From Azolla caroliniana (taxonomy: Eukaryota; Plantae; Polypodiophyta), in contig JBHGNT010000015.1 in NCBI GenBank assembly GCA_043228905.1, positions 4,960,001 to 5,024,000 on the forward strand: a stretch of 64,000 bases of DNA, written 5' to 3'. Each line of letters opens with the position of its first letter. Position 1 is the stretch's first letter. The translations under genes were made by a program, and so were the position numbers. A model generated the notes under the pieces. It made no database searches, was not told the DNA's origin, and worked only from the letters and a program-made list of their open reading frames with translations. Positions 4,124 through 59,699 of this stretch are shown in pieces.

Positions 4124-4896
4124 TGTCGTGCCTTTCGGCTCCAGATCGTTGCGTGAGTCGGGTGGAACCACTGAGGTTTTGGACTAGGAGAAAGAAGAAT
4201 ATGAGATGAGGCTATTAATGAATAGATTATTAGAAAGAGAGATAGAAATTTCGTGAATCCCACAAGTGTATTGTATTCGATTAATCAATATTTAGATAAG
4301 AATATGTATTTAGATTGAAAGAAAGATATAAGAAACTTGTGAATCCCACAAGTATAGATTATATTATTTTCGTGAATCCCACGATTATATTAATCGGTTG
4401 GTGTTTTCGGAAATATATCCAATTTCCAAATATTTCACACACCTATTACATTGTGCTCCTCATCCTTATATAGAGATGAGAGAGTCTTTTGCAACCCATG
4501 CGTTTTCTCTAATTATAGACTCCATGCTTTTTCTATAGATAGACTATATGCTTTATCTAAAGTGATCATGCTTTTTCTAACTTGTGCGTTTTTTTTTATT
4601 TATTGACTATAGTGTTCATGCACGTTACATGTGCATTTGTAGCTTTTTCTTTTATTATGCATTTTTCTAAAGTTTATCCTAGCGTGAACTTACGTTTCTA
4701 TATGGAACATCTACTTTTTAACACTAATAAAATGCTAGTGTAATGGTAAGACATTACATTATTAACGTGGAGGTGCAAGGTTCGAATCTTGCCCTATGCA
4801 TGTTATATATGTTTTAATATTTTCTACTATTTATTCATATTTATTAAATCGGTACTTTATATGTTTTTCATGTAGTGTACGAAATACACTACGACA
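4124..4896 (-). mobile_element. Solo LTR (Gypsy, 4-bp-TSD type) inserted in the copia RT
   Basis: TGTCGT...ACGACA ends and TSD CCGC (4120-4123, 4897-4900). The sister copia is uninterrupted at 25125-25140. Orientation inferred from similarity to the 1120 end and a TATA near 4465. Confidence 0.85.
4734..4800 (+). promoter_or_regulatory. tRNA-like Pol III A-box/B-box module inside solo LTR
   Basis: TAGTGTAATGG ... GGTTCGAATC at tRNA spacing, with a GCAAG/CTTGC T-arm. No acceptor stem. Confidence 0.6.
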
Positions 4897-33356: not shown

Positions 33357-33383
33357 GTAAACGTCATGAATACATAACCATCA

Positions 33384-33450
33384 TGGCTTCACTTGGACTT
33401 GAACCCAAGACCTTGTAATACATAATCAAGAACCTAACCATTAAGATAGC
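33384..33450 (-). promoter_or_regulatory. tRNA-like A/B-box module in LTR U3 (second copy 38795-38860)
   Basis: Minus strand TATCTTAATGG ... CTTGGGTTCAAGTCCAAGTGAAGCCA. Confidence 0.6.
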
Positions 33451-33506
33451 ATATGATCATATGAAATAATAAAAGTTACTTCTTGTAATAGACTGATTAT
33501 TGTAAA

Positions 33507-33578
33507 TGTTCTGGAATATTCTAGAACATTCTAGAATATCCTAGAACATCTTAGAATATTCTAGGTCTAGAACATTCT
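33507..33578 (+). promoter_or_regulatory. Heat-shock-element array in the 5' LTR
   Basis: TTC tg GAA ta TTC ta GAA ca TTC ta GAA..., alternating nGAAn pentamers. Confidence 0.75.
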
Positions 33579-36500
33579 CTCTCTCTCTCTCTCTCTCCAT
33601 GGCTATCATCAACTCAGAAGAATATTTCACCCTTGTTGCAGAAATGGAGAATCTTAAATCCAAGTTCGCATCTCTCGAATTAGAGAATCAACGTCTTCTT
33701 GGGGATCTACAAAAGGTTACTGTGGAGAAGCAACAACAAGAAGAAGAGTTTACGCGACGGGTGCAACAATTAAAATCGACAATTGTAATTTTACAACAAC
33801 AAAGGGTCAAAGGTCAAGGAAGTCTAAGGAGCCCAAAATCAGTCTCCCGGTTAAATTTGATGGTTTGAGGGTGCATTTTCGAGGCTTTTTGAATCAAGTG
33901 CGGTTGCTAATCCAAATGCATCCCACGCATTATCCGACATATGCATCATGAGTCGGGTTAGTGGGCAGCTTATTGAGTGGCATAACATTGTCATGGTTTG
34001 ATCCATTACTAGAGACAAATTCTCCTCTACTACATAATTTCGAGGAGTTTGTCAAAGAATGTAAGGCTTGCTTTGGAGATATAGATGGGGCAAGAACGAC
34101 AATCAACAAGATTCGTACACTACGTCAAGGTGATCAACCAACCTCAACATATGCAGCTAATTTTTGTCTCATCGCAAGTGATATTCCTTGGGATGAACAA
34201 GCCCTAATGCAACAATTTCGTTCCGGCCTTCGTAGTGATGTGAAGGACTTACTTCTTACCTTCCTCGAGGATCCAAAATAGCTTACAGAAGCTATTAGTT
34301 TAGCAATATGGTGTGATAATTGTCTTTTTGAGCATCGATGTGAGTGACAACAACAAATAACAACATCAAGAAACACACCGACTTATGCATCAGTAATTGC
34401 GCAATCGTCTCCAAGGCAAACATATAGCCCTGCTCCAACCCCAACGCAAACATGTAGCCCAACCCCAATGGATAGGCCGACGCCCATGGAGATCGATATG
34501 ACCCAACGTTGAGGACCATTGTCAGAAGAAGAGAAGCAGCGATGCCGAGCAAACCGTCTATGCTTATATTGCGGAGGTCTAGGACACATAGCCATTCATT
34601 GCTCCTGTAGGCCAAGACGTCAGGTAAATCACATTCACTATGACCATAAAAATGAGTCCAACATTTTAGAAGTACTTAGCGATTCTAATATTATGAATAA
34701 TCCACCCTTGTCCAATAAATTTGAAGTCCTAAGCCAATTAGAAGAGGAGTCAAACAAATAAGTCTGGCCAAAATAGGAGCCATTTTGTTGGACAACCCTA
34801 GCTCTGTAAAAACCAATAATGCCTATCGAGCAAAGTATTGCTTCATGGATATCTTTGCCATTGCAAGATGAAATGAGTTGAGAAGATTTGCTAGCTATAA
34901 GGATTCAACAAGTAGAACGGAGGCCTAAAGATGTCGAGTTGGCAATAGAACGGTTGCGCTAGGCTCGATTGAAGAACAAGGAGAATTTTGATAAAAAGCA
35001 TCGTCTTCGACAAAGAAAAATTGAAGGAGATTGGGTTCTTGTCTATGATAGTAGTCTCGATAATCAATACAACACTACTTGAAAGTTTGTAAAACGTTGG
35101 TTTGGCCCGTATATGGTTAAGAAAATTGGAAACAATGCAACCTATTTTTTAGCGGAGTTAGATAGAACTCAACTTGCCTTGCCAATTGCACGAAAGAGGA
35201 TCAATATCTTTAAGAGAAGAGAGGCCCCAAATCTTAATATTGAAACTCTAGATGATGTGGCCTCGAACATCGAGGTTGAAAAAGAGTAATTAAAAGAGGA
35301 ACCTCACCACAATTGGCCTCTACTTTTCCCCAGTTTCCGTAGTAGTGATTGATGGACATCCCATAGCTTCCAGGGAGATATTCGAAGAGTCTGAGCCAAT
35401 ACACATACTCTTAGGTGATTTAGGATGTGTAGTTTCCTTTAATATAATCCGTAGCCCCGAGCATCCAATTGCCGTTGGTTTGCCATGGTTCGAGCTATAT
35501 AACCCATGAATTGATTGGAGGAGGTGAGAAATTTGGTGCCCTTCTGCAGAAAATTTCATTGCTAAGGATCGAACCCAAGACTATTCCCTTAAAGAATATA
35601 GTTCTACCAGTGCACCATCTCCTTTTCAGCAAATCTCAACTATCACATTGCAACAAATGTTCCAAAAGGGAGGAAAGGAGGAACTTTTTTTGTTTGCAAT
35701 ATCAGTGACACCTTCTAGCGCCACTCAAGGGAATTCAGACATCCAAATTCCTGAAAAATATCAAGAATATGCTAATGTTTTCGATAAAGTCAAAGCTAGT
35801 GTACTTCCAAAGCATCGGTCATATGATTGTCCCATTGACCTCCAACCAGGAAAAGACCCACCGTGGGGTCCGATCTACAATCTGTCACCAACTGAGCTTG
35901 AGGTTCTTTGAGAATACATCGAGGAGAATCTTGCACATGAGTTTATTCGACATTCAAAGTCTCCAGCCGGTGCTCCTATATTTTTTGTGAAGAAAAAGGA
36001 TGGGTCGCTTCGTTTGGTCGTCGACTATCGGGGATTAAATAAAGTCAGCATAAGAAATAGCTATGCTCCTCCTTTAATCTCCAGTCTTTTAGAGCGCATT
36101 GATGGGGCAAAACATTTTACAAAGATTGATTTAAGGGGTGCATATAATCTTGTTCACATTCAACCGAGAGATGAGTGGAAAATGGCATTTCGCACTCGCT
36201 ATGGTCATTTCGAGTATATAGTGATGCCTTTTGGGCTCACAAATGCACCCGCAGTTTTCCAACATATGGCAAATGACATTTTCCAGGATTTTCTTGATAT
36301 CTTTCTCATAATCTATTTAGATGATCTGTTGATTTACTCTAAAACACAGGAGGAGCATGATATACATGTCCGAAAAGTACTTGAACGCTTAAGAAAGTAT
36401 GGTCTATATGCTAAACTTGAGAAATGCAGATTTGACAGTGAACAAGTCGAATTCTTAGGTTATACTATTTCATCTAAGGGTATCTTCATGGATCCAACAA

Positions 36501-38915
36501 AAGTCAAAACAATATTGGAATGGGAAACCCCACGTTCTGTTCGAGACGTCCAATGCTTCCTCGGATTTGCTAACTTCTATCGCAAAATCATACGGAATTA
36601 TTCAAAGATCGTGTTGCCTCTCACCCAACTCACCAAGAAGAATCAAACATTTGTTTGGAGTATGGAAGCGGACACAACCTTTACTCAACTCAAAGAGGCA
36701 TTCACATCAGCTCCTATATTAGCACATATTGATCCTGAAAATCCATTTACCATTGAAGCAGATGCGTCAGACTTTGCATTGGGGAGTATCCTATCCCAAC
36801 CAAGTAAAGAACGAGCAGTCCCATTGAGTCGCATTTTACTCGAGAAAATTTACTGCTGCGGAGATAAACTATGAGGTGCATGACAAGGAGTTACTAGCTG
36901 TGGTTGACTCTTTCGAGCAATGGCGACATTTCTTGGAAGGATCGCCTCATCAAATCATCATTTATAGTGATCACAAAAATCTTACGTATTTTCAAACGGC
37001 TCGAGTGTTAAATAGGAGACAAGCTCGGTGGGCATAGTTTTTAACTCATTTTGATTTCAAGATCGTTTTCCGCCTTGGGAAGCAACAAGGGAAGCCAGAT
37101 ACTCTATCTCGACGTTCATATCTCACACCTCGACCTGGAGATCCGGCCTTCGACAAACAAAAGCAAATTCTACTAGGCCCATCAAAGCTACAAGCAACAA
37201 CAGTTTATGCCACGCTGCTGGATTCACGCCTTGTTGATACTATTCGGCAACAACTTCACTCTGATGATTTTGCTAAGGCTGTCTCAGCCTACATTAGTCC
37301 AAACCATGCATCTTGCTCCACAATGCCAAGTTCACCTCCGAGTCAACATTATCAGGAATTCAAGTGGCAAGATGACTTACTCTTTTACCATAATCTCCTT
37401 TACGTCCCTGATGGATCACCTCGCCTTCAAGTATTAGAGCATTGTCATGATGCGCCTATGGTTGGACATTTTGGTATTGCCAAGACCATGGAGTTGGTGA
37501 AGCGCTCATTTTGGTGGGCTCATTTGCAAAATTTTATTGAAGATTATGTTCGTACATGTGATACTTGTTGTTGAGCCAAAATACCCAGGCATCATCCTTA
37601 TGGCTTATTACAACCGTTACAGCCTCCAACCAAGCCATCACAATCTATTTCTATGGATTTCATTACAGATCTGCCACCTTCACAAGGATTTTATACTATT
37701 TTAACAGTAGTGGATCGGTTTACCAAGATGGCACATTTTTTACCATGTGTAAAGAGCATCAGTAGTCAGGAAACCGCAGATATCGTTATGTGTGAACTAT
37801 TTCGCCATCATGGTCTTCCAAACGATATAAATATTGATCATGGTCCTCAATTTATCTCTCACTTTTAGAAGCACCCATGGGTAGGCCTCAAAATATCCTA
37901 CAAACTCTCTTCGGCTTATCATCCACAAACTGACGGACAAACAGAGCGCACGAATCAAACACTCGAGCAATATCTTCGATGCTTCATCAGTTATCAACAA
38001 GATGATTGGAGTAATATTCTACATCTCATTGAGTTTGCATACAATAACACAATACACACTTCTACCAAGGTTACACCTTTCTTTGCGTACACCGGCAACC
38101 ATCCTCGATGGTGTATATTGGATCTTCCCAACATCGCCCGAAACTACATCAAATTCAGTTAGCGTTATCTTCACATCTTCAGACAACTCAAGCACAACAT
38201 AAGACCAACGTTGATCGCCATCGTCTTAAGTCTCCTTTCAAGTCTGGTGACCAAGTATGGTTGCTTCGTCATCAAATCAAGACTACCCAGCCATGTAAGA
38301 AGCTCGATTATCAACGTTTAGGTCCTTTCCTCATCACTGCACGTATTAACGATGCCACCTTTCGTCTTAATCTTCCAGCACACATGCGGCTTCACCCAGT
38401 CTTTCACAACTCTCTTTTGGAGCCTTGTCACACCTCTTCCATTCCTAATCGTGTCATGCCACCTTCGACCTCTATCCAACTTGTTGATGGCCCTGAATAC
38501 GAGGTAGTTGTTATTCTCGATTCAAAGATTGTGCGAAATAAGCTCTATTATCTGGTTGATTGGGTAGGCTATCCTTCGAGGAGTGATCGCCCTTCGGAAC
38601 CTATGTTTCTAATGCTCAAGCTCTTCGGAACCCGTCAATAATGTTTCTAATGCTCAAGCTCTTGTCAAAGACTTCCATCACCTTTATCCAAACAAACCGG
38701 GCCCTACATTGTTAACGACGACTTCCACTCATTGTTCGTCGTTCTCGAAGGGGAGACAGTGTCATGAATACATAAGCATCATGAATATACAAGCATTGTA
38801 CTTGGGCTTGAACCCAAGACCTTGTAATACATAATCAAGAACCTAACCATTAAGATAACATATGATCATATGAAATAATAAAAGCTACTTGTTGTAATAG
38901 ATTGACTATTGTAAA

Positions 38916-39075
38916 TGTTCTGGAACATTCTAGAACATTCTAGAATATCCTAGAACAACTTAGAATATTCTAGGTCTAGAACATTCTAGAATATCCTAGA
39001 ACTTCTTAGAATATTCTAGGTCTAGAACATTCTTGAACATTATAGAAATCACTAGGTTATGGGAACCTATAAATA
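38916..39075 (+). promoter_or_regulatory. Long heat-shock-element array plus TATA box (TATAAATA, 39068-39075) in the 3' LTR
   Basis: Repeated TTCTAGAACA-type 10-mers over about 130 bp, directly upstream of the TATA box. Confidence 0.8.
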
Positions 39076-39171
39076 TAGACATAATTATTCTCAAACCAAT
39101 TCGAATCAACACTAGTCTTAAGCTTTTGTCGCTTACCTTGTATCCATCTTCATTCTATCTTATTCATACAT

Positions 39172-39576
39172 TCATTCTTCTCTTGTTGTGATTTCATTAC
39201 AGTCTATCTTTTCTCTTGGTTCTGACAGTAAACATCTGCCTATTTCTTCGTCTTCACGTGTAATATGGTCGGACAGATAGGAAGGGGTATATGCACGCAC
39301 GATTTCCTCAACACTAGGACGATTTTGTGGTTCCTCACAAGTAGCATAGAGAGGAGTCACATCGAAAGATGGGTCGAAGAACTTATGACATATGTATGCG
39401 AACACGATAGTTGCGACCAAAGGCGGCAACAATAGTGGTACATACACGAACTCCATAACTCTGAAATAGCCAAGCATTGTGAGTTGGGATAAGAGGAGAG
39501 AAGCTACTATCCAGGAATGGATGTGAGGCCACATCCTACCTCCGCTCTCGTACTTCGGCACGATCACGTTGAGCGC
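39172..39576 (-). CDS. ERD4: ERD4 exon 7 (last 18 codons LTR-derived)
   Basis: TGTAG|ALNVIVPKYESG...TTREE*. Confidence 0.88.
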   Translation of the reverse strand, partial: ALNVIVPKYESGGRMWPHIHSWIVASLLLSQLTMLGYFRVMEFVYVPLLLPPLVATIVFAYICHKFFDPSFDVTPLYATCEEPQNRPSVEEIVRAYTPSYLSDHITREDEEIGRCLLSEPREKIDCNEITTREE

Positions 39577-42500
39577 CTACAAAATCACAAAGGAGGACTA
39601 ATATTAACATGTTACTCATATATTAATAAATCGTATGATAGCTTTGCTCCAAAAGAAGTATGGCAATCTTTGGCAATGTAAGGACCCATATGGGGAGGGA
39701 GCGGGGAGGTCAATCATTGAACAATTAAGGAATAAAGCTTCCTATGCCCAATCATTCTTTGAAATAACTCATATATGGGAAGCTTAACTCTGCGTACTGA
39801 ATCGTCTCGACACTCATATTATCTCTATATGTCGGTACTGAATTCGCCTCATAATGTATCATAATGTATACCATCCTTTTAACAAAGATTAATCTACATA
39901 TTATATATTATACTTGTATAATACATCTCTGGTTAGTATGTCGATTAATCTACACACAAAACACGCTGCACGTGTTAATATGTACACATGCATTAATCAC
40001 GTATAATACATGTGGTATACGAACCAAATTTGCAGATGTATGCATTTAGCACATATAACATACATCTGTGTGACATTAATTTTATGAAATTACTTGTGTC
40101 GACCGAGTGCGCAATGGCCTTACCAGATTCCGCATGAATAGCCAGCCTAATCCAAAGTAGACAATGGCAAACACCAAAATCAGCGGTGCTATGACTGCAT
40201 ATGAAAAAGTGATTGTCAAGATGAGCATATCCCCTGGGACACGAATTGCATATTTGAAGCACTTAGGAGCCCATGCTTCTTGGATGTCTTCCTCAGTCTT
40301 CCATTGGAACCTCTTTCTGATACGAAATTTGATGAGTGAGACTATCCTTGAGAATGCCAAGCCATAACCCACAAAGAGCCTGCATTAGTAAGCACCAGGA
40401 CTGAAGATTAGAATCGTTAGAATCAAGCTGACAACATATATATGCCTAATACACATATTGTTTTGATTCTAGAAGTCCTCAAAACTGAGGGTATAAATGT
40501 GCTGATCGACATCTTTATATAAATGACAAGCAGAATTAAGAGATTTCTGGATGCGGATTGCACAGACAAATGCATAGATATAGGGCTCGTGTTGTAGCAA
40601 ATGGCACGTTATATTACTTGATGGCCACAAATGAGATGAAGAAGCTGGCTTGTCTGGGCACAAATTCGCTTAGCTGTGAAATTATGAATTGCGGAGATGT
40701 TATGAATTCCTGACTATTGATGATGCCGAGAAGGTAAGCTAACAATCTGATGGCAATGGTGACACCCAAAAAGACGTTCAAAACATTGAAGTAGAAGAAT
40801 TTCCCGGCAGCTGCCCTGTCCCGAAGGTCTTTTGAAGGAATCCCCTCGAAGCTTGAGAGCTTCAGGAGCAGAGATGAAAGCAAGAAAATGGAGATAAGGG
40901 AAACCAGCTGAGAAAGATAATGCGGCAGTGCTGTGTTGACTAATGGCATATCCTCCGGAAGCTTGAGCAAAATGAAGGCGGCCGAGATGATGGCGTACGA
41001 GGTCAAGTAGGCGGGGATCGTGTAGAAGAGGATCATGACCGTAACCACGAAATAGACTAAAGTTTGCCGGACAAGCCTTTGTACAAAGGGTATAGCGAGG
41101 TTTCCCCATATGACCGCTTTCGGATCGGGAGCAGCACAGGTAGTCCATTGATTGGCATAGAGGCTATGCATAGTCTGCGAATTTGTCAATGGTTTGATGT
41201 GATTACAATGGAAGCCTGATCATTTAGTTTACAGACGAGCATTTAATATGATCATCATCTTCATAATGATGATGATGATGATGATTACGGCAGAGAGAAA
41301 TTATCTCTGTTGTCAGATTTGGACGACATTAACATACAACCTAGGGGTTGATTAAAGATTAATATACCGAATTAGACCACTCATTGAGAATCTTGGAGGA
41401 TTTGATTACCAGAGATGCACTGTTGGCAGCTGCTCTGGTACTAAAGATGACAATAGCCGCGCCGTTCTGCGACACAGAAAACGTGACAGAATTTCGTTCA
41501 GTCTCTAGAGCTCTTTCTTTCTCATCTTTCCGTCGCTTGTAGAAATCGATGGATTTTTCTCGACGACCAAAGAGACCGAGGAACCCAGTCCTATGCGTAG
41601 GCTCGATCTCCGTCTTCGAGTATTCCAGCTCTGCGCGAGCCAGTTTCCTCCTAAATTCCTCCCTCTCTCGCCACAGCTTAGCTGCCTGAAAAATGTCAGT
41701 ATACACAAAGAATTCACGCAATTAGCTACATCTACACGCAGAAAGATTTGGACATATTTGCAGAGATTATGAGATCTTTGGGTACATACATTGGATATCT
41801 TTGTGACGATGACACATGCTCTGTAGGTTTCAGGGTGCAGAGCTTTGAAGTACTTGTCCACCTGGTCATAGATGGTGCCACTGCCAGGCACAGGAGCAGG
41901 GATGTCCCTCACCAGAACTGCGTATTGCTCTGGTTTTACCTTCTCAGGATTCGATTGATCCACGCTTCTCAGATGCACCACATGCTTGTAGGTCTTCCAT
42001 AGCCGATGCATCGTGACTATGGTGAGCCAGTAAGCTCCAATTACATAGGCCCACAGACGTTTGCTCCCATCCTGCAGAATCAGTGAAGAAGAAGAGAAAA
42101 ACCATCAGCTTCAGTCCATTGATTCGATTCCATTCTACAGATGTGATTAGATTAACATAATTGCATTACCGTGACATTCCCCATCGTGAGCTTGTCGACA
42201 TCACTGGATCCATCCGTGTAATCCATGGCTCTCTGAAGCTCGAAATTCTTGTCTGTTATGGAAACAGGAAGCAGTATGGGCACGCAGAAGATTGCTGTGT
42301 ACAGGCAAATGGAGAAGGCTGCAAGGAATTCAAAGCGGAGGAAAGTAATTGAATCAGACCCAGAGGAAAGTAATTGAATCAGAAACAGAAGAAAGTAATT
42401 GAATCAGACCCAGAGGAAAGTAATTGAATCAGAAACAGAAGAAAGTAATTGAGTCAGAACCAGAGGAAAGTAATTGAATGAGAACCAGATGAAAGTAATT

Positions 42501-43165
42501 GAATCAGAACCAGATGAAAGTAAATGAATCAGAACCAGTGGAAAGTAAGTGAATACGAACCAGATGAAAGTAATTGAATCAGAACCTGAATAAGAATCAA
42601 ACTAATTGAGCAAAAGTGAAGTTAGAGTCTAGTAGATTACGATGAGTCCACTAGTTAGAGCTCATATTTGAAGTCCATTTAGGTTGCGACCAAAAAAACA
42701 CAGGAAATTCATCAAACAAGTGCAGGCAGGTCGGTCTTTTTGGCATCGGATTAGCAGGCCAAATCACAGAAACCTATTCACTGCAGTCCCAAACTAATAA
42801 TTCTAAACAGAGGGAGAAATTTGTCCCAGAGATTAATTAAAAGAACCAAAATCAGCTAAAACGAGTGGAACGCAGGAAATTCTGCTTATAGATTAGTTAC
42901 CAGATCCAAGAAACGTCATGTAGATGGCAGCATCCAGGCCTGCATTCTTGATAATCTCCTCCTCAGTAGCAAACCAAGCTTCGCTCAGCCAGCCGAAAAG
43001 CCCAGGCTTGTAATAGGGGGGGACATTCTTGATTTTCTTGGCAGGGTAATAGATTACTTCGTTTTCAGGGATCCGAGAGAAGATGGAATGGACAATTACA
43101 AGAACCACGAAGATTAGGAAAGACGTGGCCAGCGAAGTGACAAAGACTGAGGTTTCCATGTCCAT
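39172..43165 (-). CDS. ERD4: CSC1-like/OSCA3 (ERD4-type) mechanosensitive calcium-permeable channel, 7 exons, 729 aa: join(43165-42901, 42318-42170, 42071-41790, 41685-41410, 41174-40618, 40379-40124, 39576-39172)
   Basis: All six introns are GT-AG with matching phases, giving a 2190-nt open frame. ERD4 motifs GLDAAIY, QYAVLVRDIP, HRTGFLGLFG, APDPKAVIWGNL, RVPGDMLILTI, YESGGRMWPHIH. Confidence 0.93.
40124..40379 (-). CDS. ERD4: ERD4 exon 6
   Basis: TGCAG|LFVGYG...FMRNL|GTAAGG. Confidence 0.9.
40618..41174 (-). CDS. ERD4: ERD4 exon 5
   Basis: CGCAG|TMHSLY...SFVAIK|GTAATA. Confidence 0.9.
41410..41685 (-). CDS. ERD4: ERD4 exon 4
   Basis: TTCAG|AAKLW...ANSASL|GTAATC. Confidence 0.9.
41790..42071 (-). 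CDS. ERD4: ERD4 exon 3
   Basis: DGSKRLWAY...VTKISN|GTATGT. Confidence 0.9.
42170..42318 (-). CDS. ERD4: ERD4 exon 2
   Basis: TGCAG|CC...FCVPILLPVSITD...DKLTMGNVT|GTAATG. Not in the ORF track. Confidence 0.88.
42341..42590. repeat. 25-bp minisatellite, 10 copies, in ERD4 intron 1
   Basis: GAAAGTAATTGAATCAGAACCAGA(G/T) at exact 25-bp spacing. Confidence 0.92.
42901..43165 (-). CDS. ERD4: ERD4 exon 1
   Basis: MDMETSVFVTSL...TFLGS; donor G|GTAAC. Confidence 0.9.
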
Positions 43166-43489
43166 TAAGGATCAAGCTTTATCTCTTGGAAAGGAATTTA
43201 AGAGAAGGTTCAGGCCTGAGATGTAACGGCCATGGAGGGAAGGCCGATTCAGAGGAAGTAAAGGTTATTATTGAATTAAGTCTGCCTAAGATTGGCGATG
43301 GCGGAAAACAGGTAGTTGAGGGCAGGTAAATGCAGCAGGAACAACTCAACATCAGAAATCAGGCAGGAAATTAAGATTATGGAGAAATCAGAGATTGTTT
43401 GTTGGGAGACTATATGGACTTAAGATTATGGACTGAGCTTGTTTGTTGGGATATTGGGAAAAGTAGAGATTGTTTGTTTGTTGGGCTGG

Positions 43490-48726: not shown

Positions 48727-48929
48727 GCTGGTATGGCGATGGCTACGACGATGGCTATGGCAATGGAGGCAGGTAGGCAGGTAGGCAGGGGGGGGGTGGG
48801 GGGTCGTAAAATGTTGGATGAAGAAGGAAGGAGAGGAGAGGCTAATGAGGTTTTGAGCTATAGAGTGGACATGGACATGCCTACAAAGATGATGAGAGAG
48901 GAGAAAGCAAAGAAGAAGTTTCATCTATA

Positions 48930-49360
48930 TCTCGTGATGAGAGTGATGAAAGATGCAACATTCATAGCTAAAGTTCTTGAACATCATGATCACTGCTCAC
49001 GTGAAATGTAATATTTTTGGTCTCATAGATCATATTTAACCCCCAAAGATGGTAATAGAATCCATCTATCTATCTATCTCTCGTGATGAGAGTGGTCAAA
49101 TATGTACACTTTGTCCTAAACAAGTTTGAGAGTGTGAATATTACACTTTTATACAATGCTTTGTCTAATAATGATCTTATTTGACCATGCTTTACACAGA
49201 TCTTCGACCAAGCCCAATCCTTGCATGAATTTCATTCACACCCACAATGTGCACTCTCGATTCTAACATTCATTGGTAAAGTTCTTAAACATTGAGAGTC
49301 GCTACTCACTTTCACATGTATTACTTGAAATGTAATATATTTCATCTCATAGTTCATATC
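48930..49360 (+). mobile_element. Two tandem 3'-end fragments of a LINE
   Basis: Match the reverse complement of 57700-58020; (TCTA)n tail at about 49065-49080. Confidence 0.7.
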
Positions 49361-52300
49361 ACGTGAATCTGTGTGTATGTGTGTTTGTGTGTCTCATGAT
49401 CTTGACAACTTGAATTTAATTTTGCCATTTTTTATCTTACATTCATCTAGTACTAATAACTTGTATTAGTGCACAAGAATATCAATTCGTTCTTTTGGAG
49501 TTTCAGTGCTCGAAGGGAAAGTTCGTGTCACTAGAACAAGAAAATCAATGCCTGTTGTGTCTTCTAAGAACAATTACAAAATAAAGCAACAAAAACATGA
49601 GGATTTAACATTACAAGTACAAGGGGAAGCAACTATCGTGTCTTTACAACAAGATGGAATGAGAACACAAGGAATCCTTAAAGAACCCAGGATCAATCTT
49701 CCCATGAAGTTTGATGGATCACTATCTTAATTGAGTGGGTTCCTCAATCAGGCACATTTAGTAATTCAAATGCATCCTCCTTGATATCCAGCTAATGCAT
49801 CACAACTGGGGTTAGTAGGCACATTACTAAGTGGTACAACATTACCCTTGTTTGCACCTTTGTTGGAAAAAGGATCTCATTTGTTGGAAAAAGGACCATG
49901 ATCGAAAGAGGAAAAACAAGGACACTGAGCAAATCGACTTTGTCTTTATTGTGATGGACCGGGGCATATTGCAATGAACTGTCCCCATATGCTAAGAAGA
50001 CAAGTAAGTCAAATAGTCCCATATGCTAAGAAGACATGTAGTCACTAGTACTAAACCCTAGTCCTAATATCCCAAGCCTATCAAACAAATTTGAAGTCCT
50101 TATTTGACTAGAAGAAGAGTTATTTAAGTCCAACCAAAATAGGAGCTATTTGGTTGGACAACTCTAGATCTGTGCAACCCATTAGTGGTTCCATTCCCTC
50201 TAAGCAAGTTAGTAATGTCTTCCTAGCTCAAGTAACAATTAGTACTAAAAGTAACCTTCCAGTACATGTCTTAGCACTCTTAGGTTTCAGAGCCAAATCT
50301 TGTTTCAAAGATATGAATTTTGCCCAAGCTCATTGGATATCCCTAAGAAAAAACCCTTGCCCAGTTTTTGTAGTAGTCATTGATGGTTTCCCCATTGCTT
50401 CTAGAAATATCATAGAACAATCAGGGCCGATTAGTGTTGTCCTAAATAATTTGGTCTGTGTAGTATTATTTAATGTACTTATTAGTCTAGAGCATCCAAT
50501 TGTTTTGGGCTTACCATGGTTCGAATCACACAATCCAGACATAGATTGGAGAACAAGAGAAATCAGGTATCAACAACCTCAAGGATCTATTCATAAGATT
50601 TCAATCATTTTGCTACATCAATTGTGTGAGGAAGGACGCAAGGAATCAATGCTTGTATTCGCAGTATCAGTGAAACCTTCTAACATCGCTAAGGAGGAGT
50701 CAACAATTCAACTTCCAAAGAAGTATCATCATTACATCGACGTTTTTGATAAGGTAAAAGATAGTTCTCTTCCTCACCATCGATCGTATGATTCTCCCAT
50801 TGACTTACACCTAGGAAAAGAGCCACCATGGGACCAATCTACAACTTGTCACCTACCGAGCTTGAAGTTCTTCAAGCCTTCATAGAGGAAAATTTAGCAA
50901 ACGAGTTTATTCGACATTCAAAATCTCTAGTCGGCGCTCCTATTTTCTTTGTCAAGAAAAAACATGGATCACTTCGTCTAGTCGTAGATTATCGTGCCTT
51001 GAATAAGGTCACCATTAGGAATAGGTATGCACTTCCCTTGATCTTGAGTCTTTTCGAGAGGATTAATGGTGCAAAATTTTTCACAAAAATCGACTTACAA
51101 GGATGATTCGATTAGGAGATGAATGCAAAACAGCTTTCCGCACCTCATATGGGCACTTCAAGCATATGGTTATGTTGTTCAACCTCATCAATGCACCAAC
51201 AGTCTTCCAACACATGGCAAATGATATATTCCGAGCTCTTTTGGACATCTGTTTGGTCATCTACTTGGATGATCTGTTAGTTTATTCAAAGACATAGTCA
51301 AAGCATGATTCTCATGTACTATTCGTATTAAGATGACTAAGAGAACATGGTTTTTATGCAAAGCTGGAAAACTGTGGTTTTGATTGTAACTAGGTGGAAT
51401 TTCTAGGCTATGTCATCTCCTCAGAAGGCATCTCTATGGATCCAGCTAAAGTCCAAATTGCATTAGAGTGGTAGACTCCACGTTCATTACGAGATGTGCA
51501 ATGCTTTTTAGGATTTGCAAATTTCTATTGCAAGTTTATAGAGGACTACCAAAAGCTTATTCTGCCAATCACACAATATACAAACAAGGGGCAATCGTTT
51601 GTTTGGACTAAGGAAGCGGACACAACCTTTGAGGGTCTCAAAAAAGCATTTACATCGGCTCCTATTCTAGCTCATGTTGATCCGCATAAACCATTTATCA
51701 TTGAGGCCAACACATCGGATTTCGCCCTCTATAGTATTTTGTCACAGCAAGGCAATGATGAGAAGCTACATCCCATGGCTTTCCACTCGCACAAATTTGA
51801 TGCTGCCGAAATCAATTACGAGATAAATGACAAGGAGTTGTTAGCAATAGTGGACTCTTTTGCACAATGGAGGCTTTTTTTAAAAAGATCTACTCATCAA
51901 GTCATTGTATTCAATGATCACAAGAATCTTCCCTACTTCCAGAATGTTTGCGTATTAAATAGACGACAAGCTCCGTGGGCCTAGTTCCTCACTTGTTTCG
52001 ACTTCAAGATTATATATCAGCTAGGCAAGGAATAGGGGAAGGCAGATGCATTACCATGATGCTCATATCTAGCTCCTCATCTTGGTGATCCGGCCTTTGA
52101 CAATCAAAATCTAGTAATTCTAGGTTTGACATGATTTCAAGCAATGTGGGTTTTTGACACTCCATTGGATTCTTGCATTATTGTTACCATATGTGAATAT
52201 TTGAAGATAGATGTTTTCGCTCAAGCTATTCTAGTTCAAATCGACCCCTCTTGGGTATCTTGTTCACTATCACAACAACCAAGTACGGATTATCAATAAT

Positions 52301-52979
52301 TCGAATGTCATGATGGATTACTGTTCTTTACGAAACTTCGAATAATACAAAATTGTCATGACACATACATGGCTGGACATTTTGGTAGTACTAAAACATT
52401 GGATTCAACAATCATTTTGGTGGCCTCATATGCAAAGATTTGTCGAACACTATGTTGAAACGTGTGATACATGTTGCAGAGTAAAGATGCCTAAACATCC
52501 TCCATATGGATTGTTGGAGTCATTAACGATCCCAAGCAAACCATGGCAATCAATTTCTCTAGATTTTATCACAAATCTTCCGGAATCGAAGGGCTTCAAT
52601 GTGATCTTAACATTCGTTGATCGATATCCTAAGATGGCACATTTCGCGCCCTGTACTAAAGATGTCACTTGTAAACCGCAAGAATTGTTATGTGTGAAGT
52701 ATTTCGGCAGCGTGGTCTTTTCGACAGTATCATCAGTGATCATTGACCTCAATTTGTCCCTAAATTTTGGAAGCATCTCTTCAAAATGCTCAAGGTCATC
52801 TGCAATCTCTCCTTTGGCTATCATCCCCAAATAGATGGACAAGCAAAATGTGCCAATCAAACACTCGAACAGTATCTTCGGTATTTCCTAAGCTATTAAC
52901 AAGATGATTGGGTAGATATTCTACACTTTGCCGAATTTGCTTATTATAATTCTATCCACTCCTCTACTAGGGTTGCACA

Positions 52980-55900
52980 TGTCATGAAGACATACATTTT
53001 GGCCTTACAAGGATTCAAGCCCACCACGTCTTGGTTTATATGTTAGAGCTTTAACTATTATAATAACATATCTGATGTATAGTTATAATAAATATATTAT
53101 TAGTTATTACAAGATATTTAGAGTATTCTAGGACATTCTAGAATATTTTAGATATTTATGTTATTTAATATAATTATGGAATATCCTAGAATGTTCTAGA
53201 ATACTCTAAATATCTTGTAATAATTAATAATATATTTATTATAACTATACATCATATATGTTATTATAATGGTTAAAGGTCTAACATATAAACCAAGACG
53301 TTGTGGGCTCGAATCCTTGTAAGGCCAAAATGTATGTCTTCATGACATTATCCCCCATTTTCGACGACGAGTTCCACGAGTCGGAAGACAAGATTTCGGA
53401 CTTGTCTTATGGGGATATTTGTTGTGAAACGCAACAACTATTTCGGAGGCATTAGCAAGACTCTCGAGAGGTTCTCATGTTCGATCATTATGTGTATAAC
53501 CTAACAAGTCAACCAAATAATACAGTTTGTTGTGAACGATCTTGGAGTCTAGAATGGCAACAACTTCATATTTAGAGCCATTTGAAACTTCGATTGGAGG
53601 TGCGGTAGATGTAAGACGACCTAGAATAGAGCTGGTTGTGTAGGGCTCCAAAAGTGAAACATGGAAGACCGGTTAAAGATGTATATGAAGGGGAAGATCA
53701 ACCCAATGTTCTGAGTTGTTGTAAGCAAATTCCTCCAAATGTAATAGATCAACCCAATCATCTTGTTGATAGTTGAAAAAACAACAAAGATATTGTTCTA
53801 CTATTTGGTTGGTGTGCTCACTCTACCCGTTAGTTTTTGGATGGTAGCCTGAAGAGATTTTGCAAGAAGTATGTAAGAGTTTGAACATGTGCCGCCATAA
53901 TTTTGAGATGAACTGGGAACCCCGATCACTGGTAATATCATTGGGAAGACCATGATGTGGAAACACCTCTCGCATGAGTAACTCGATTGTCTCTTGGCTC
54001 GTAATGGCCTTTTGTGTAGGGAAGATAATGTGTCATCTTCGTAACACGATCTACTACCATGAGAATATAATCAAAACCCTTGGAAGGTGGTAGATCTGTA
54101 ATGAAGTCCAATGAAATAGATTTCCATGGACTCTCAGGAATAGGCATTGGCTGTAATAAGCCATATGAATGATGTCGAGGTTTTTTGGATCGATAACATG
54201 TATTACAACTGCCAAAATGTCCAACCATTGGTGTGTCATGACATTGTTGCAAGACTTGGAGTCGAGAAGGACCATCAAGTCTATATAAGAGATTTTGTTG
54301 AAAAAGTAAACCATCATGCCAATTGAACTGGTTGTAGTCTTGACGAGGATTTTGAGATTGTGAACAAGAAGCACGATCCAGAATAATATGGTTCAAAATG
54401 TCTTGGGTGAATTCATCAGTCTCAATATGCTCCCCTCTAGAGTTCAGAATACTTGAATCCTCGGATGTGTCTATAGCATGGAATGCCATTAGTCGTAGAC
54501 GGTAAGGACCCAAGAGGATTTGCTTTCTGACTTTCAAATGCGGCCTCTCTTGGTTGAAGTTCCATATACGAACGCCGAGATAAAGCATATGCTTTTCCTT
54601 GTTGGGTCCCAAGGCAATATAGAATTACAAAATCAAAACGAGTTAAGAACTGTGCCCAACGAGCTTGTCGATGACTCAAGACTCGAGCACTTTGGAAGTA
54701 TGTTAGATTTTTGTGATCATTATAGACAATGATTTGTTGAGACGAACCCTCCAAAAAATGACGCCATTGTTGAAAAGAATCCACAATGGCAAGAAGCTCT
54801 TTGTCATGAATCTCATAGATTATTTTTGCAGCTTTGAATTTCTGTGAATGAAAAGCCACAGGCTGCAATTGGCCATCATTGCTAATCTGGGATAATACGC
54901 TTCCTAGTGCGAAGTCGGATGCATCAGCTTCGAGTATAAAGCGTTTCAATTGATCAACATGCATCAAAATTGGTGTGGATGTAAATGCTTGCTTTAATCC
55001 TTCAAATGCTGAGTTTGCATTTATACTCCACAAAAATGGTCCATTCTTTTGTGCCAGGTGAGTGAGGGGCAATACGATCTTTGAATAATCTTTGATGAAC
55101 TTGCCATAAGTTTGCGAACCCCAAAAAACAGTGTACATCTCGCACAGACTGTGGTGTTTGCCAATCCAAAAATGTTTGAACCTTTGCTGGATCCATAGAG
55201 ATGCCATGTGAAGAGACTATGTACCCCAAAAATTCCACTTGATGCTAGTCGAAACTACACTTCTCCAATTTTGCATAAAAACCATATTCACGCAACCGTT
55301 GCAAAGCTTGTCGAATGTGTATATCATGATCCTCCTGAGTTTTTGAGTAGATCAAGATATCATCCAGGTAACTATGATGAAAATATCAAGGAAATCTCGA
55401 AAAATGTCATTTGCCATATGTTGGAAAACTGCTAGTGCATTCGTGAGACCAAATGGCATCACTGTATACTCAAAATGGCTATAGCGAGTACGGAAAGCAG
55501 TCTTCCATTCATCCCTAGGACGAATTTGAACAAGGTTGTAAGCACCTAGAAGATCTAACTTTGTGAAATATTTAGCTCCACTGAGGCATTCTAGAAGGCT
55601 CGAACTCAATGGTAGAGCATATTGGTTTGGAATAGTTACTTTATTCAATCCTCGATAATCAATGACCAGACGAAGCGAACCATCTTTCTTCTTAACAAAA
55701 AATAGGGGTGCGCCAACAGGAGATCTTGAATGCTGGATAAGCCCATTCGCCAAGTTCTCATCGATATATTCCTGAAGAACCTCTAGCTCCGTGGGCGAAA
55801 GGCTGTAAATTGGCCCCCATGAAGGCTCTTTTCCGGGCTGCAAATCAATCAGGCAATCGTATGGTCGATGCTCTAGTAGTCTATTGGCTTCATCTTATCA

Positions 55901-57686
55901 AACACATCATAGAATTCTATGTATTTCTTTGGTAGTTTGACCCCCAATTCTTTTTAGCTTGATGTGGGAATTGCTAAAACGGCGAACACCAACATGTCTT
56001 CCTTTCGTCCTTCCTCACGTAACTAATGTATAGAGATTGTCGAAATCTTTTGGAATGTCATATCCTTTGTTGGAGTTTTAAGAGACTCGGACTCTATTGT
56101 GACCTCTTCAATGGTTCTTTTTCTCAAATCAATAGTTCGGTTATGTAGCCCAAACCATGCAAGACCAAGAACTAGGGCGTGCTTTGGACTACTAATGATG
56201 TTGAATGAGATGACACCAGCCAAATTGCCTACGACTACATGAATTGATTCAGACTCTTCAACTATATCACCCAATGCTATGGGGCGTCCATGAATGACTC
56301 CGACAGACACTGGGCTTGGGAGCTTATGCAACTGAATATTATGCATTATAGCAAACTCACGATTTATGAAACAAGAGTTGGCTCCAGAGTCTAAGAGGGC
56401 AGAAGCTGGGACTCGATGGCAGCTAGATGTGTTAATCTCAACTTGAGTAGAGAAAACATGACTAACTTGACTATATGAAATGGAACCACAACTAGGGACG
56501 AATGTTATATGCCTAGGGCTGTCCAACCGAATGGCTCTGATTTTGGCCGGACTTACTTGTTTAACACATCATCTAATTGGCTCAAGACATCAAATGTATT
56601 TTTATGACAGAGACTACTAGGCCTGCTTGGGTTACGAGGAGGCGGGGCAGAAATTGAAATGGGATTGTCATAAGTACTAGCTTAACTTACTGTTGTGGTT
56701 TCTGTGGAAAAATTCACAACAATATGTCCTGGACAACCAGAATAGAGGCAAAAGTGATTCGCTTGACATCGTTGCTTTTCAACATCCGATAATGGTCCTC
56801 GATGTCGTGTTGTCTCAATGTAGGGCCTTCCACCAAACTTGACTTTGATACTGTGGTGGAGTTGCAACCACTGACACATATGTTTCTGTTGGTCTGAAGT
56901 GTAACATTTGTTGGTGCTCAGAACGCCGCTCAAATAAGCGATTGTCACATCACACGATCCAACTTACTGCTTCAGTAAGAGATTTTGGATCATTTTGGAA
57001 GGTAAGAAGTAAATGCTTCACATAATTGTGCAGACCTTAACGAAATTGGTCCTTTACTGCGGCCTCGTCCCATGGAATATCACATGCTAGAAGGCGAAAA
57101 TCTACAGCATAAGCGGAAGCAGGATGATCTCCTTGTCGTAATTGCCAAATTTTGTTTATTGTGGTCCTCATACTATCAGTGTCTCCAAAGTTTCCTTGGA
57201 ACTCATTAATAAACCCTTCAAAATCTTCTAATAATGATGATTGCTTCTCTAGGAGTGGTGCAAAACACGTTAATGCGGTACCCGTTAACAAGGTACCAAC
57301 TAGTCCCACGCGAGCAACATAAGTTGGGTAACGGCTAGGATGCAATTTAATCACAAGCTGTACCTAATTTAAAAATCCACCGCTTTTCGTTGCAATAGAG
57401 TAGCCTCTAATTGATGCATCCATTGCAATAACTCTCCAAATTGTTGTACCTTCTCAACACTTACTTGTTGTAGGTCGCCTAGCAATCTTTGATTTTCTTG
57501 CTCCAAGGCAACGAATTTGGTTGTTAGCATATCGAGTTCAGACAGAACGCGCATATATGCTTGCTTGCTGACGGACTCCATAGTTACAAGAGAGATTTGC
57601 TAGATTTGCTTGAATAAGTTTAAGAGAAGAAGGAGAAGAAATTGGAGACGAGAAAAAGAAAATTCGGTTCAAACTGTCAAGACGAG

Positions 57687-57722
<36 letters not shown>

Positions 57723-58518
57723 TATATTATCGTCTTAGGAGGTCAAATATGACCTATGAGACCAAAAATATTACATTTCACGTGATACTCGTAAAAGTGA
57801 GTAGTGACTGTCAATGTTCATGAACTTTACCAATGAATGTTGCAATCACGAGTGCACATTGTGGTTGTGAGAGGAATTCATGCAAGGATTGGGCTCAGTC
57901 GAAGAGATGTGGAAAGCATGGTCGAATATGATCAAAGGCAGAGCATTGTATCAAAGTGTGATACTTAGACTCGCAAACTTGTTTAGGGCAAAGTGTGCAT
58001 AGCAAACCACTCTCATCACTTGTACCCCAACGCCCTGTCTCACATCGCAATGCATGTGAGCTAAGTTGCATGCAAGAAATTGTTCGAATGGCAGATAACG
58101 GTATGGGCTCTAACATGTATCGATGTGTACGATTTCCCCGTTCTACACACACACACACACACAAGACAAGAAATAGAAATAAGATTATATTATGAGGAAA
58201 CAAGATTACAAAGAGTAGGCTAAGGGCTAAAGATTGATGTTGAACCAAATGAGTTGTGATGAATGAATATACACCTAGTATAGGTCCTTATGGATTATTC
58301 TAGAATGTTCTAGAATATTTTAGATACTTATGATATTTAATATAATATGGAATATCCTAGAATGTTCTAGAATACTCATATTATCTTGTAATAACTAATA
58401 ATATATTTATTATACCTATACATGATATATGTTATTATAGTGGTTAAAGGTCTAACATATTAACCAAGACATCGTGGGCTTGAATTTTTGTAAGGCCAAA
58501 ATGTATGTCTTCATGACA
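52980..58518 (-). mobile_element. Nested chromodomain Gypsy element with a fold-back 3' LTR
   Basis: 5' LTR 58518-57675 (contains a LINE insert); gag, PR (LLDSGANS), RT, RH, INT, chromodomain; PPT next to 53348; 3' LTR 53347-52980 is palindromic. Confidence 0.88.
57688..58145 (-). mobile_element. 5'-truncated LINE (RTE-X/CR1-like C-terminal Cys/His domain) inserted in an LTR
   Basis: LSSHALRCETGRW..CTLC..E.KYH.LIQC..FDHIR; (TCTA)n tail; approximate TSD CAAGAC(G/A)AGA. Confidence 0.75.
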
Positions 58519-59204
58519 TCACCACCATTCTATGCTTATATAGGCTTTCATCCTCATTGGTGTGTGTTAGAAACTCTTGAGTTACATACAAATCCTAGTG
58601 TAGAGGATCATTTGGAGCGGCTACGATGAATTTAGACAAAACTATCTACCCACCTACATCATGCCCAACAAACACAAAAGGATTATGCAGATCGTCATCG
58701 GCTTCCATCCTATCTTGATACTGGAGATAGAGTATGGCTATTATGATAGCATATTAAGACTATTGGACCATGTGACGAACTAGATTATTGACAGTTTGGG
58801 CCTTTTCGTATTATTAGCAAAATTAACAATGTCACTTTTCGCCTTAATCTATCTCTGCAACTACGGATAGATATGATATTTCATAGTTCTCTTCTAAAAC
58901 TCTATCAAGACAACACTATTCCCAATCGCATGACACCACCTCCACCCCTGATCAAACTTGAAGATGGACTTGAGTACGAAGTTGCTGCCATCCTCGATTC
59001 CAAGATTATTTACAACAAGCTCTACTATTTGGTCAATTGGCTAAGCTATAGTCCTAGTGATCGTACTTGGGAACTAGTAGAGAATTGGCTAATGCTCAAG
59101 CTCTACTTGAAAACTTTCATTGTCAATATCCAAAAAAACCAAGTCCTCAATCAAAGACGACTCGTAACACTCGTCGTTTAAAAGGCGGGGATAGTGTCAT
59201 GATA

Positions 59205-59272
59205 TGGCTCCAATAAGATTTGAACCCATGAACTCGTCTTATATGGGTTGAACCCTTACCATTAAACTATGC
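59205..59272 (-). promoter_or_regulatory. tRNA-like A/B-box module in LTR U3
   Basis: Minus strand TAGTTTAATGGTAAG ... ATGGGTTCAAATCTTATTGGAGCCA; consensus A and B boxes. Confidence 0.65.
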
Positions 59273-59699
59273 ATTGTAGTACAAAAGATATTATTTTTAT
59301 TGATTATTTTACTCTAGGAAATTCATGTATATTCCAGATTTCTTTGGAACACTCTAGAAACTTCTAGAGTACTCTTGACAACACTATAAATAGAGGGACA
59401 AGGCATTATTCAAAACCAATTCTGTTCAACACCAGTCTTAAGCCTCCTAGTTGTTCTTGTATCTGTCACGAATACATAAGCATCATGGCTTCATTTGGGC
59501 TTCTCTTCACATAATATACCACTTGTTATCATCATTCTCTCTCTCTTTACTCTCTCTCTCTCCCCCCCTCTCTCCCTCTCTCTCCCCCTCTCTCCCTCCC
59601 CTTCTCTCATAAGTCCCTCTTAATACTAATCCTCTTAGTACTTTCCTCCTCTATCTCTAGTACTAATTCCCTTTTTGTCTTTAGTACTATTCCTAACAA

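Follow-up and report, generated by a model that had tools for sequence, protein, structure and literature searches.

Helenus (TRIMp3; Kojima 2024, PMC10886601) is the closest described counterpart of the LTR architecture reported here: its LTRs hold a tRNA-derived sequence in which conservation centres on boxes A and B and no functional tRNA is retained, as in our case, and an origin from a SINE or tRNA insertion, which we likewise suppose here, has been proposed. Helenus, however, is non-autonomous and 311-1263 bp long, and in the entries examined there its tRNA part lies in sense near the LTR 3' end and is the proposed driver of the element's own transcript, whereas the elements studied here are autonomous, with a pol that includes a chromodomain, and carry the tRNA-like unit antisense at the U3 outer edge, next to an enhancer array with a TATA box (PMC10886601). 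According to the available text of the Helenus paper, autonomous partners have to rely on Pol II and are not expected to have LTR sequence of this sort in common with it, and autonomous LTRs with tRNA-like parts were not covered by its analysis (PMC10886601). Cassandra and Ajax TRIMs also hold an internal Pol III promoter within their LTRs, and Cassandra is present in ferns, but these elements are non-autonomous and their 5S-derived (type 1) promoter yields element RNA, as shown for Cassandra and inferred for Ajax (PMC10886601). Until now, tRNA-like LTR pieces have been known only from miniature non-autonomous elements, where they act as sense promoters, or as passengers that nobody had examined. 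In HIV-1, an autonomous LTR element with tRNA-gene-like sequence in U3 as here, the U3-R is reported to be tRNA-Lys3-like, to match the primer tRNA and to act through RNA pairing (Piekna-Przybylska 2010), and Ty3 reportedly offers a comparable precedent of host-tRNA pairing; in contrast, the elements described below are putatively self-priming and keep the promoter letters alone.

A/B or B boxes that serve as TFIIIC DNA sites apart from any tRNA function, as predicted here, are known from tDNAs and ETC (extra-TFIIIC) sites at fixed host loci in yeast and animals, where they have TFIIIC-dependent barrier and enhancer-blocking activity (PMC12409998), while according to the available text of a review there is no report of an animal- or yeast-type barrier element, tDNA/ETC barriers included, that functions in plants (PMC9540200). 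Our literature search found no tDNA/ETC barrier reported inside LTRs. With regard to the host elements, Tcn1 elements self-prime and their chromodomain retains the methyl-lysine cage, and Phygy prefers an NCGN 4-bp target site (PMC6317226); the Tcn1 clade resembles our chromoviruses in chromodomain, fungal nearest relatives and, putatively, self-priming, as the Phygy lineage resembles our solo LTR in target site (PMC6317226, PMC2864245). Tcn1 has been placed in mosses and lycophytes, with none detected in ferns by PCR, and Phygy in Physcomitrella, and Pol III boxes in their LTRs are not mentioned in the available text of these two papers (PMC6317226, PMC2864245). The initial annotation of this DNA knew of no description of the architecture and overlooked Helenus; the literature searched, with subscription journals and Repbase outside its scope, held no description of a conserved antisense A/B-box LTR unit in autonomous plant Gypsy elements.

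The window, that is, the whole 64-kb stretch of Azolla DNA analysed, contains the following features:

4124..4896, - strand: solo LTR of a Phygy-like non-chromovirus Gypsy family, within a Copia RT, with a 4-bp TSD of NCGN type
4736..4800, + strand: unit of the solo LTR (T8 at 4736, G52 at 4779; boxes perfect; about 95 nt from the LTR 5' end)
10830..10910, - strand: possible decayed unit remnant in the 5' LTR of element 10646-18730
33362..39227, + strand: element A, Tcn1-like chromovirus, 5.9 kb, TSD GTAAA
33384..33448, - strand: unit of the element A 5' LTR (T8 at 33448, G52 at 33405)
38793..38857, - strand: unit of the element A 3' LTR (G52 at 38814; a local duplication alters its 3' end)
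38919..39043, + strand: TTCnnGAA array of the element A LTR, inward of the unit
52980..58518, - strand: element B, Tcn1-like chromovirus, sitting in the integrase of element C/D
53000..53065, - strand: unit in the inverted duplicate of the element B U3 (palindrome arm)
53262..53327, + strand: unit of the element B 3' LTR (G52 at 53306)
57661..57674, - strand: PBS position of element B, partly complementary to the R start of its own LTR
58433..58498, + strand: unit of the element B 5' LTR (G52 at 58477; B box decayed)
58519..59194, + strand: element D, the 3' remainder of element C (integrase end, chromodomain, PPT)
59205..59269, - strand: unit of the element D 3' LTR (G52 at 59226; A and B boxes perfect)

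All seven tRNA-like A/B-box units that had been reported in this DNA were found where they had been placed, and every one is antisense to its own LTR and faces the LTR 5' terminus (7/7). The one at 53000-53070 is an inverted duplicate, the fold-back arm of the element B 3' LTR, and has no LTR of its own. A generic A-box/B-box pattern gave exactly two perfect pairs in the window, both among these copies (B boxes at 4779 on the + strand and 59226 on the - strand, spacing 43), against a mean of 0.003 perfect pairs per window in 300 shuffled windows. Copies 33405, 38814 and 53306 fit the pattern with 1-2 mismatches, and the more decayed copies 53000 and 58430 were recovered by profile search; a near-match at 35575, within pol, was taken as chance. 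The Rfam tRNA model scored 20.6 bits on the solo-LTR unit (gathering threshold 29; model positions 8-63) and found no tRNA match in the 59205 unit, nor in a scan of the whole window up to E 10. Likewise, ARAGORN called no tRNA in the window or in 60 of 80 related loci tested, and because its output at lowered thresholds was noise that did not single out the units, no parent tRNA isotype was assigned. The likeness of the 59205 copy to tRNA-Gln ends, proposed initially, gained no support.

Domains and RT relatives, rather than a tree with named Tcn1 references, are the basis on which elements A, B and C/D are classed as Tcn1-like chromoviruses: a chromodomain follows the integrase, and the RT is nearest to the Tcn1/Tf1-Sushi group. 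Element A has RT, RNase H, integrase, SH3 (Pfam SH3_Tf2-1) and Chromo (Pfam, weak, E 5e-4) domains, and the nearest named relatives of its RT are fungal (Absidia, Mucor, Cryptococcus CNBB2750), a few Tanacetum records excepted. Its LTRs lie at 33362-33578 (5', cut off at a (CT)n run) and 38760-39227 (3', with a TATA near 39070), its PBS is deleted, and its TTCnnGAA array is one that we take to be heat-shock-element-like. Element B has a 5' LTR at 57675-58518 and a 3' LTR that begins at 53347 and folds back (52979-53147 on 53180-53348, 95%), and its flanks agree as a TSD at just 3/5 letters; element C ends at 52979, and the LTR of element D starts at 59195. The element B PBS shares with the R start a 7-nt exact complementary core, longer if a mismatch is allowed, and this core suggests that the element is putatively self-priming, with no tRNA primer. 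The solo LTR belongs to a high-copy family, has no coding part and is classed as Phygy-like by its NCGN 4-bp TSD. Common termini, TSD type, weak LTR alignment and low-agreement loose ends tie it to element 10646-18730, which is Phygy-like with TSD ACGG and whose possible unit remnant is absent from the 3' LTR. The layout of the solo-LTR unit matches that of the Tcn1-like clade.

Related loci (80) were fetched by integrase and not by motif, and the generic A/B pattern was scored over the initial 200 nt of each 3' LTR, leaving out 16/80 loci without a located LTR start and 7/80 with less than 100 nt of LTR. The A+B pair was found antisense in 14/19 LTRs of the Tcn1-like clade at no more than 2 mismatches and in 17/19 at no more than 3, in sense in 0/19, and in 0/41 LTRs of other Tcn1-like elements beyond the clade on either strand; shuffled sequence matched with a mean of 5.8 mismatches. 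Some LTR starts were placed by hand, and a few outgroup starts are possibly misplaced. Within the clade, L065 has no unit because its LTR breaks off about 20 nt past its start, and outside it L024 has a B-box-like word alone. Compared with Helenus, boxes A/B in the LTR are shared, but the elements are not short non-coding TRIMs and the promoter is not in sense (0/19, against 17/19 antisense). In the integrase tree, from which element B is excluded by its fewer than 100 aligned residues and where L021 stands in for it, the ten families with the unit at the same place and strand form one clade (support 0.88). Profiles built with one family left out recovered 9/9 omitted families with the best match on the antisense strand. 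The initial annotation had recognised that independent SINE insertions would undo its reading, and the units appear unlike such insertions: 24/24 profile matches with E<0.001 are in LTRs, antisense and adjoining the LTR terminus, at a variable distance of 26-50 nt, with no TSD or tail around them by eye. No convincing free-standing copy was present in the 358 kb searched, DNA chosen for retrotransposons. Viral contigs yielded no related locus and no match to the strict pattern, a blank that says little because that pattern itself finds just 3/80 fetched loci.

The neutral benchmark comprised 10 families (45 non-independent pairs) whose integrases share 56-78% amino-acid identity. Across them identity was 0.70 at 17 box positions, against 0.42 at integrase four-fold sites and 0.42 in the anticodon arm, and it reached 0.82 in a ten-position subset of near-invariant tRNA positions; the boxes exceeded four-fold sites in 44/45 family pairs. 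Decay of the boxes at the pace of their surroundings had been named as a refutation of the initial reading; between families, the boxes decay slower than neighbouring neutral DNA. When 11 LTR starts were aligned with MAFFT, blind to the motif, conservation peaked at four places, namely the LTR terminus, the B box, the variable loop and the A box, with the boxes above the rest of the unit (permutation p=0.005). The variable-loop letters 44-48 are conserved (0.82-0.83) within a near-contiguous conserved block at positions 44-61, the A-to-B spacing is fixed at 43-44 nt, and A-box G10 is kept in 5/11 families and lost in 6/11. The letters T26, A34, T35 and T37, which are not tRNA letters, are common to families and thus point to a single ancestor of the units. 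The layout of a type-2 Pol III promoter is present, with AT-rich DNA upstream and an A box and a B box whose spacing is workable, and because the boxes outlast neutral DNA and the units appear unlike SINE insertions, the replicating lineages most likely keep such a promoter at the DNA level.

Conservation does not extend to the cloverleaf, the GCCA tail or the terminator. The acceptor stem is 39% paired and the anticodon stem 43%, so that the units lack the acceptor and anticodon stems expected of a tRNA gene. No consensus fold was found, nor a covarying alternative helix among the 57 windows passing the filter; an alternative hairpin (positions 33-36 with 48-51) was dropped for want of covariation. 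A weak cloverleaf remnant is visible (53.7% against 49.6% in shuffled rows, 6/500), although the rows are related, and one family (L011:134-207) retains acceptor-like complementarity; D-loop length and D-stem pair types vary among families as among tRNA isotypes. Persistence of the T-arm, one of the earlier claims, failed outside the B-box bases (41/60 cells paired, against 41.8 in permuted rows), while the 5+7+1 spacing to GCCA was seen in types A, B and D and is missing from most related families. The TTTT that had been described just past the PPT complement exists in the B and D 3' LTRs, and in family G as well, but A has none within 90 nt, and the terminator position, counted from the B box, varies across families between +10 and more than +90. 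Inside the unit TTTT is absent in 12/12 families, which is not significant (expected 1.7, p=0.13).

Among listed frequent variants within families, counted from 40 of 84-85 rows, the unit had 0/53 variable sites against 13/96 in the flank in the A family (p=0.002) and 1/53 against 17/120 in the solo family (p=0.009), where the deficit relative to the whole LTR was not significant (p=0.23). In the element A 3' LTR 0/39 listed variant places fall in 38805-38857, and the solo unit shows a 5-10-fold peak in summed contig depth, as do the LTR termini. Among inserted copies of groups D and B, however, box letters were lost faster than other unit letters (0.21 against 0.10), by changes that are mostly private (9/21 of deamination type), thus giving no sign of selection after insertion.

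We tentatively propose, giving it somewhat less than an even chance, that the unit is a tRNA-gene-derived type-2 Pol III promoter, set back-to-front at the outer end of U3, kept as a TFIIIC DNA site and acting as a boundary. Conservation of the boxes across families while the rest drifts points to likely selection on replicating elements for such a site. TFIIIC would bind the A/B boxes and TFIIIB would load on the AT-rich stretch that separates unit from enhancer, so that the bound boundary might shield the Pol II enhancer and promoter of the LTR from surrounding silent chromatin, and any Pol III would, because the unit faces outward, move off in the direction opposite to the Pol II promoter. 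The ancestor of the Tcn1-like clade may have captured a tRNA gene or SINE head once, and the Phygy-like lineage may have gained its unit by another capture or by swapping U3. The enhancer motifs beside it turn over between families and the unit stays; the general link to heat response suggested initially finds no support, since families A and B have HSE arrays yet E and H have G-box/RY motifs. Several observations sit uneasily with a boundary. Inserted copies decay freely and A-box G10 is often lost; TFIIIC tolerates A-B spacings of 32-93 bp in yeast (PMC12409998), and letters 44-48 and the 43-44 spacing are constrained beyond known TFIIIC needs. Pol II would have to cross the unit of the 3' LTR, and a complex bound there could block its passage. 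Nor is the unit essential, because the Phygy-like relative has only a decayed remnant and the 41 other Tcn1-like LTRs lack it.

The main rival to the boundary is that Pol III transcribes the unit, and that a short antisense RNA from the 3' LTR over the U3 end and PPT tunes plus-strand priming, silencing or copy number. Conservation of the A box together with the B box, the AT-rich inner flank (0.69-0.93), of a kind that plant tRNA genes need upstream (PMC13578239), the freedom of the unit from TTTT and the well-placed TTTT in B, D and G agree with it, but the non-significant deficit, the wandering terminator, the lack of a conserved RNA fold and the loss of G10 do not, and we regard it as unlikely. 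The fixed spacing and near-contiguous block 44-61 might instead reflect constraint on RNA, if the U3 of genomic RNA, being complementary to the D- and T-loops of tRNA, paired with a host tRNA in packaging or strand transfer, for which antisense orientation and U3 position fit the HIV-1 precedent; this is quite improbable, given that Tcn1 elements self-prime and need no tRNA, that the solo unit does not match the end of the primer tRNA implied by the related PBS at 11776-11793, and that the stems and anticodon arm, which would also be pairing partners, drift at the neutral rate. Pairing within the genomic RNA, with the B-box complement binding the self-primer at its 5' end and aiding circularisation, draws on a 7-letter word common to the element B PBS core and the B-box complement, and is scarcely credible, since it leaves the A box, variable loop, spacing and tRNA-primed solo family unexplained and, by eye, the R start of family A does not match its own B box. 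The unit might also be a passenger that goes back to an ancient SINE or tRNA insertion, or to several captures of different tRNA genes, and its common letters would then be those of all tRNAs and not signs of function. The free decay of inserted copies, the isotype-like differences in D-loop and D-stem and the acceptor-like complementarity of one family suit a passenger, but a single clade with one place and strand, boxes well above the neutral rate, shared non-tRNA letters that indicate one ancestor and the want of a convincing free copy in the 358 kb of retrotransposon-rich DNA searched have already weakened that reading, which we consider improbable.

What the neutral-rate benchmark adds is an antisense Pol III promoter that autonomous retrotransposons have retained while diverging for a long time. 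Returning to the boundary, if TFIIIC binds, the units would show how a chromovirus can remain active in silent chromatin, its presumed target, would be candidates for the barrier insulator still missing from plants (PMC9540200) and would place many TFIIIC sites across the genome. A bolder version, in which a tRNA promoter was domesticated separately by each of two unrelated Gypsy lineages of a single fern host and made to face outward as a portable TFIIIC barrier, is rather unlikely; were it true, the element would bring its own insulator into heterochromatin, and this would be the first plant tDNA-type barrier, present in very many copies. Although ARAGORN does not call them, LTR units of this kind may inflate tRNA-gene counts, such as the more than 7500 reported for Azolla.

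The window consists of nested LTR retrotransposons, among them the Tcn1-like chromoviruses A, B and C/D and a solo LTR of non-chromovirus Gypsy type.

LTR retrotransposon features in the window
33362-39227, plus strand: element A, with a 5-bp TSD, RT, RNase H, integrase, SH3 and chromodomain
52980-58518, minus strand: element B, inserted in the integrase of element C/D
up to 52979: element C, first half of the element interrupted by B
58519 onward: element D, the other half of element C, with its 3' LTR from 59195
4124-4896, minus strand: solo LTR within a Copia RT, a paralogue of which lacks it

The tRNA-like A-box/B-box unit in the U3 of these LTRs is a genuine feature of them. Two perfect generic A+B pairs occur in the window against 0.003 per window in shuffles (n=300), thus the unit is not due to chance. 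Both pairs belong to the seven copies listed by the initial annotation, of which the one at 53000 is created by the folding back of the 3' LTR of element B on itself. At its end this LTR repeats its U3 in inverted orientation (52979-53348; arms 95% alike, 32-nt spacer), giving B U3-type termini at both ends. The structure may represent integrated snap-back cDNA, or have arisen by later rearrangement or as an artefact of assembly; only three of five TSD letters match in the flanks of B. The Rfam tRNA model matched the solo unit with 20.6 bits (model positions 8-63) and gave no match to the D unit, and ARAGORN called none of the units as tRNA in the window or in 60 of 80 fetched loci tested. The chromovirus LTRs run from terminus through reversed B box (26-50 nt from the terminus), reversed A box, AT-rich spacer, enhancer-type repeats and TATA to R.

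Relatives were fetched by alignment of 56 integrase C-termini, retaining the best 80 of 564 metagenome loci. In the integrase tree (82 rows), A, D and 24 loci form one clade with support of 0.88. Scoring covered the LTR starts of 57 loci and four window LTRs, leaving aside 16 loci whose start was not located and 7 that were too short. The antisense A+B pair was present in 14/19 clade LTRs at no more than 2 mismatches and in 17/19 at no more than 3, while the sense pair was found in 0/19, so that the antisense orientation first noted in the window holds clade-wide; these 19 LTRs represent about ten families and are not independent cases. Outside the clade, 0/41 LTRs carried the pair on either strand. 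A profile built from the four window types alone recovered 15 loci at E<0.01, all antisense and just past the integrase, leave-one-family-out profiles recovered 9/9 families, and matches at E<0.001 lay within LTRs in 24/24 cases (11 of the 24 being training rows). A weaker match in metagenome locus L011 (152-195) falls in another, reverse-inserted LTR, to which the unit is again antisense. This further family (L011:134-227), inserted in gag, has the most tRNA-like 5' end with acceptor-like complementarity kept, and may be the form that has eroded least. In clade LTRs, the 11 distances measured from B box to terminus seem to fall into two groups around 32 and 42 nt, which differ by one helical turn.

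The comparative evidence for constraint on the unit, as read from alignments, is unusually good. Between ten families, identity was 0.65 in the A box (defined positions), 0.76 in the B box and 0.82 in variable-loop positions 44-48, the alignment anchor having taken in the variable loop, versus 0.41 in the anticodon arm, 0.34-0.36 in the acceptor strands and 0.31-0.43 in the flanks. Greater conservation of boxes than of flanks, proposed earlier as a check, is what we found. With four-fold sites of the adjacent integrase as neutral yardstick, boxes kept 0.70 against 0.42 at these sites, a value equal to that of the anticodon arm, and exceeded them in 44/45 family pairs (pairs non-independent). 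Peaks at the same places emerged from a motif-blind alignment (0.68 in boxes, 0.83 in the variable loop, 0.45 in remaining unit positions; boxes versus rest, p=0.005 with the variable loop placed in the rest). Among the rows listed (40 of 84-85), frequent variants from contigs numbered 0/53 in the unit versus 13/96 outside on the A LTR, and 1/53 versus 17/120 on the solo-family LTR, where the deficit against the whole LTR was not significant (p=0.23; same rows). In single inserted copies, box letters are lost faster than other letters, mainly by private changes, 9/21 being of deamination type. The simplest reading would be that selection acts on the replicating lineage while inserted copies decay freely. 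That the unit is a passenger, or was captured repeatedly, appears rather improbable.

At the level of sequence, these comparisons demonstrate that the LTR edge bears a conserved, outward-facing type-2 promoter. TFIIIC would bind it and might also load TFIIIB at the AT-rich spacer; the resulting complex might separate the Pol II enhancer from silent chromatin in the flanks as a boundary, which is the reading we tentatively favour. Against necessity of the unit, 41 related LTRs lack it, a related Phygy-like LTR keeps a possible remnant only, and A-box G10 is present in 5/11 families. Barriers of the tDNA/ETC type offer a functional model (PMC12409998, in part), and the portion of PMC9540200 available reports none in plants.

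An antisense Pol III RNA across the PPT is the main alternative, though less likely. RNAalifold found no consensus structure for the unit, cloverleaf pairing was 53.7% vs 49.6% in shuffles with only inner D and T pairs, themselves box letters, holding, and no other helix covaries. Row permutation over 12 families gave uncorrected p values of 0.76 (T-stem), 0.19 (D), 0.06 (acceptor) and 0.04 (anticodon stem). GCCA ends and terminators differ from family to family, and the supposed persistence of GCCA end and T-arm is not borne out across families. Neighbouring enhancer motifs also differ, with one array type in A and B, presumably heat-shock-type, and others in families E and H, which we take to be G-box/RY. 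The lack of RNA fold and covariation, the family-specific ends and the changing enhancers favour a unit kept as a putative DNA site rather than RNA. Such a site leaves unexplained the conserved variable-loop letters and near-fixed box spacing, the latter matching the yeast minimum of 32 bp (PMC12409998, in part). Pairing of the genomic RNA with host tRNA seems quite improbable, and pairing with a self-primer very improbable; an HIV-1 U3-R study reportedly provides precedent for tRNA-like sequence located in U3. Azolla has >7500 tRNA genes according to a review (PMC13578239), a count to which LTR units of this kind might contribute.

We found no published description of a conserved antisense A/B-box unit at the LTR edge of autonomous plant Gypsy elements in the literature searched. 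Helenus, as presented in the available part of PMC10886601, likewise has tRNA sequence within the LTR, but it is non-autonomous and its tRNA part is sense in the entries examined, whereas the window unit is antisense and carried by autonomous elements, and so falls outside Helenus on both counts; the same part mentions other LTRs with tRNA-like parts, left unanalysed. The accessible part of a sugar-beet TRIM paper (bioRxiv) mentions Helenus in passing only.

The nearest named RT relatives of element A are mostly fungal, in agreement with the Tcn1 clade (PMC6317226, in part), and a contig of another organism joins its left and right flanks directly (at 39228-39300), as expected of an empty site, confirming its ends. 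The solo LTR, at a 4-bp target site of NCGN type, has termini in common with the non-chromovirus element at 10646-18730, which makes it Phygy-like by the criterion in the available part of PMC6317226. Tcn1-like (33362-39227) and Phygy-like (4124-4896, 10646-18730) elements occur together in a likely fern host; the available parts of PMC6317226 and PMC2864245 place Tcn1 in mosses and lycophytes, with negative PCR in ferns, and Phygy in Physcomitrella. A 40-bp A-family LTR start lies inside the D 3' LTR (59456-59495), both being truncated there. A sequence of ~400 bp between microsatellites in the B 5' LTR (57700-58145), with an inverted copy near the C 5' end (48954-49359), may be a small repeat in its own right. 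The retrotransposons are interspersed with duplicated pieces of an OSCA/ERD4-type channel gene (40614-41216, minus strand; related 29046-31137 and 546-937). The nearest named relatives of 40614-41216 are from Adiantum and Ceratopteris (9 matches), which is why a fern host is likely. Two tandem arrays (25 bp and 146 bp) occur at 42283-42632 and 63461-64000.
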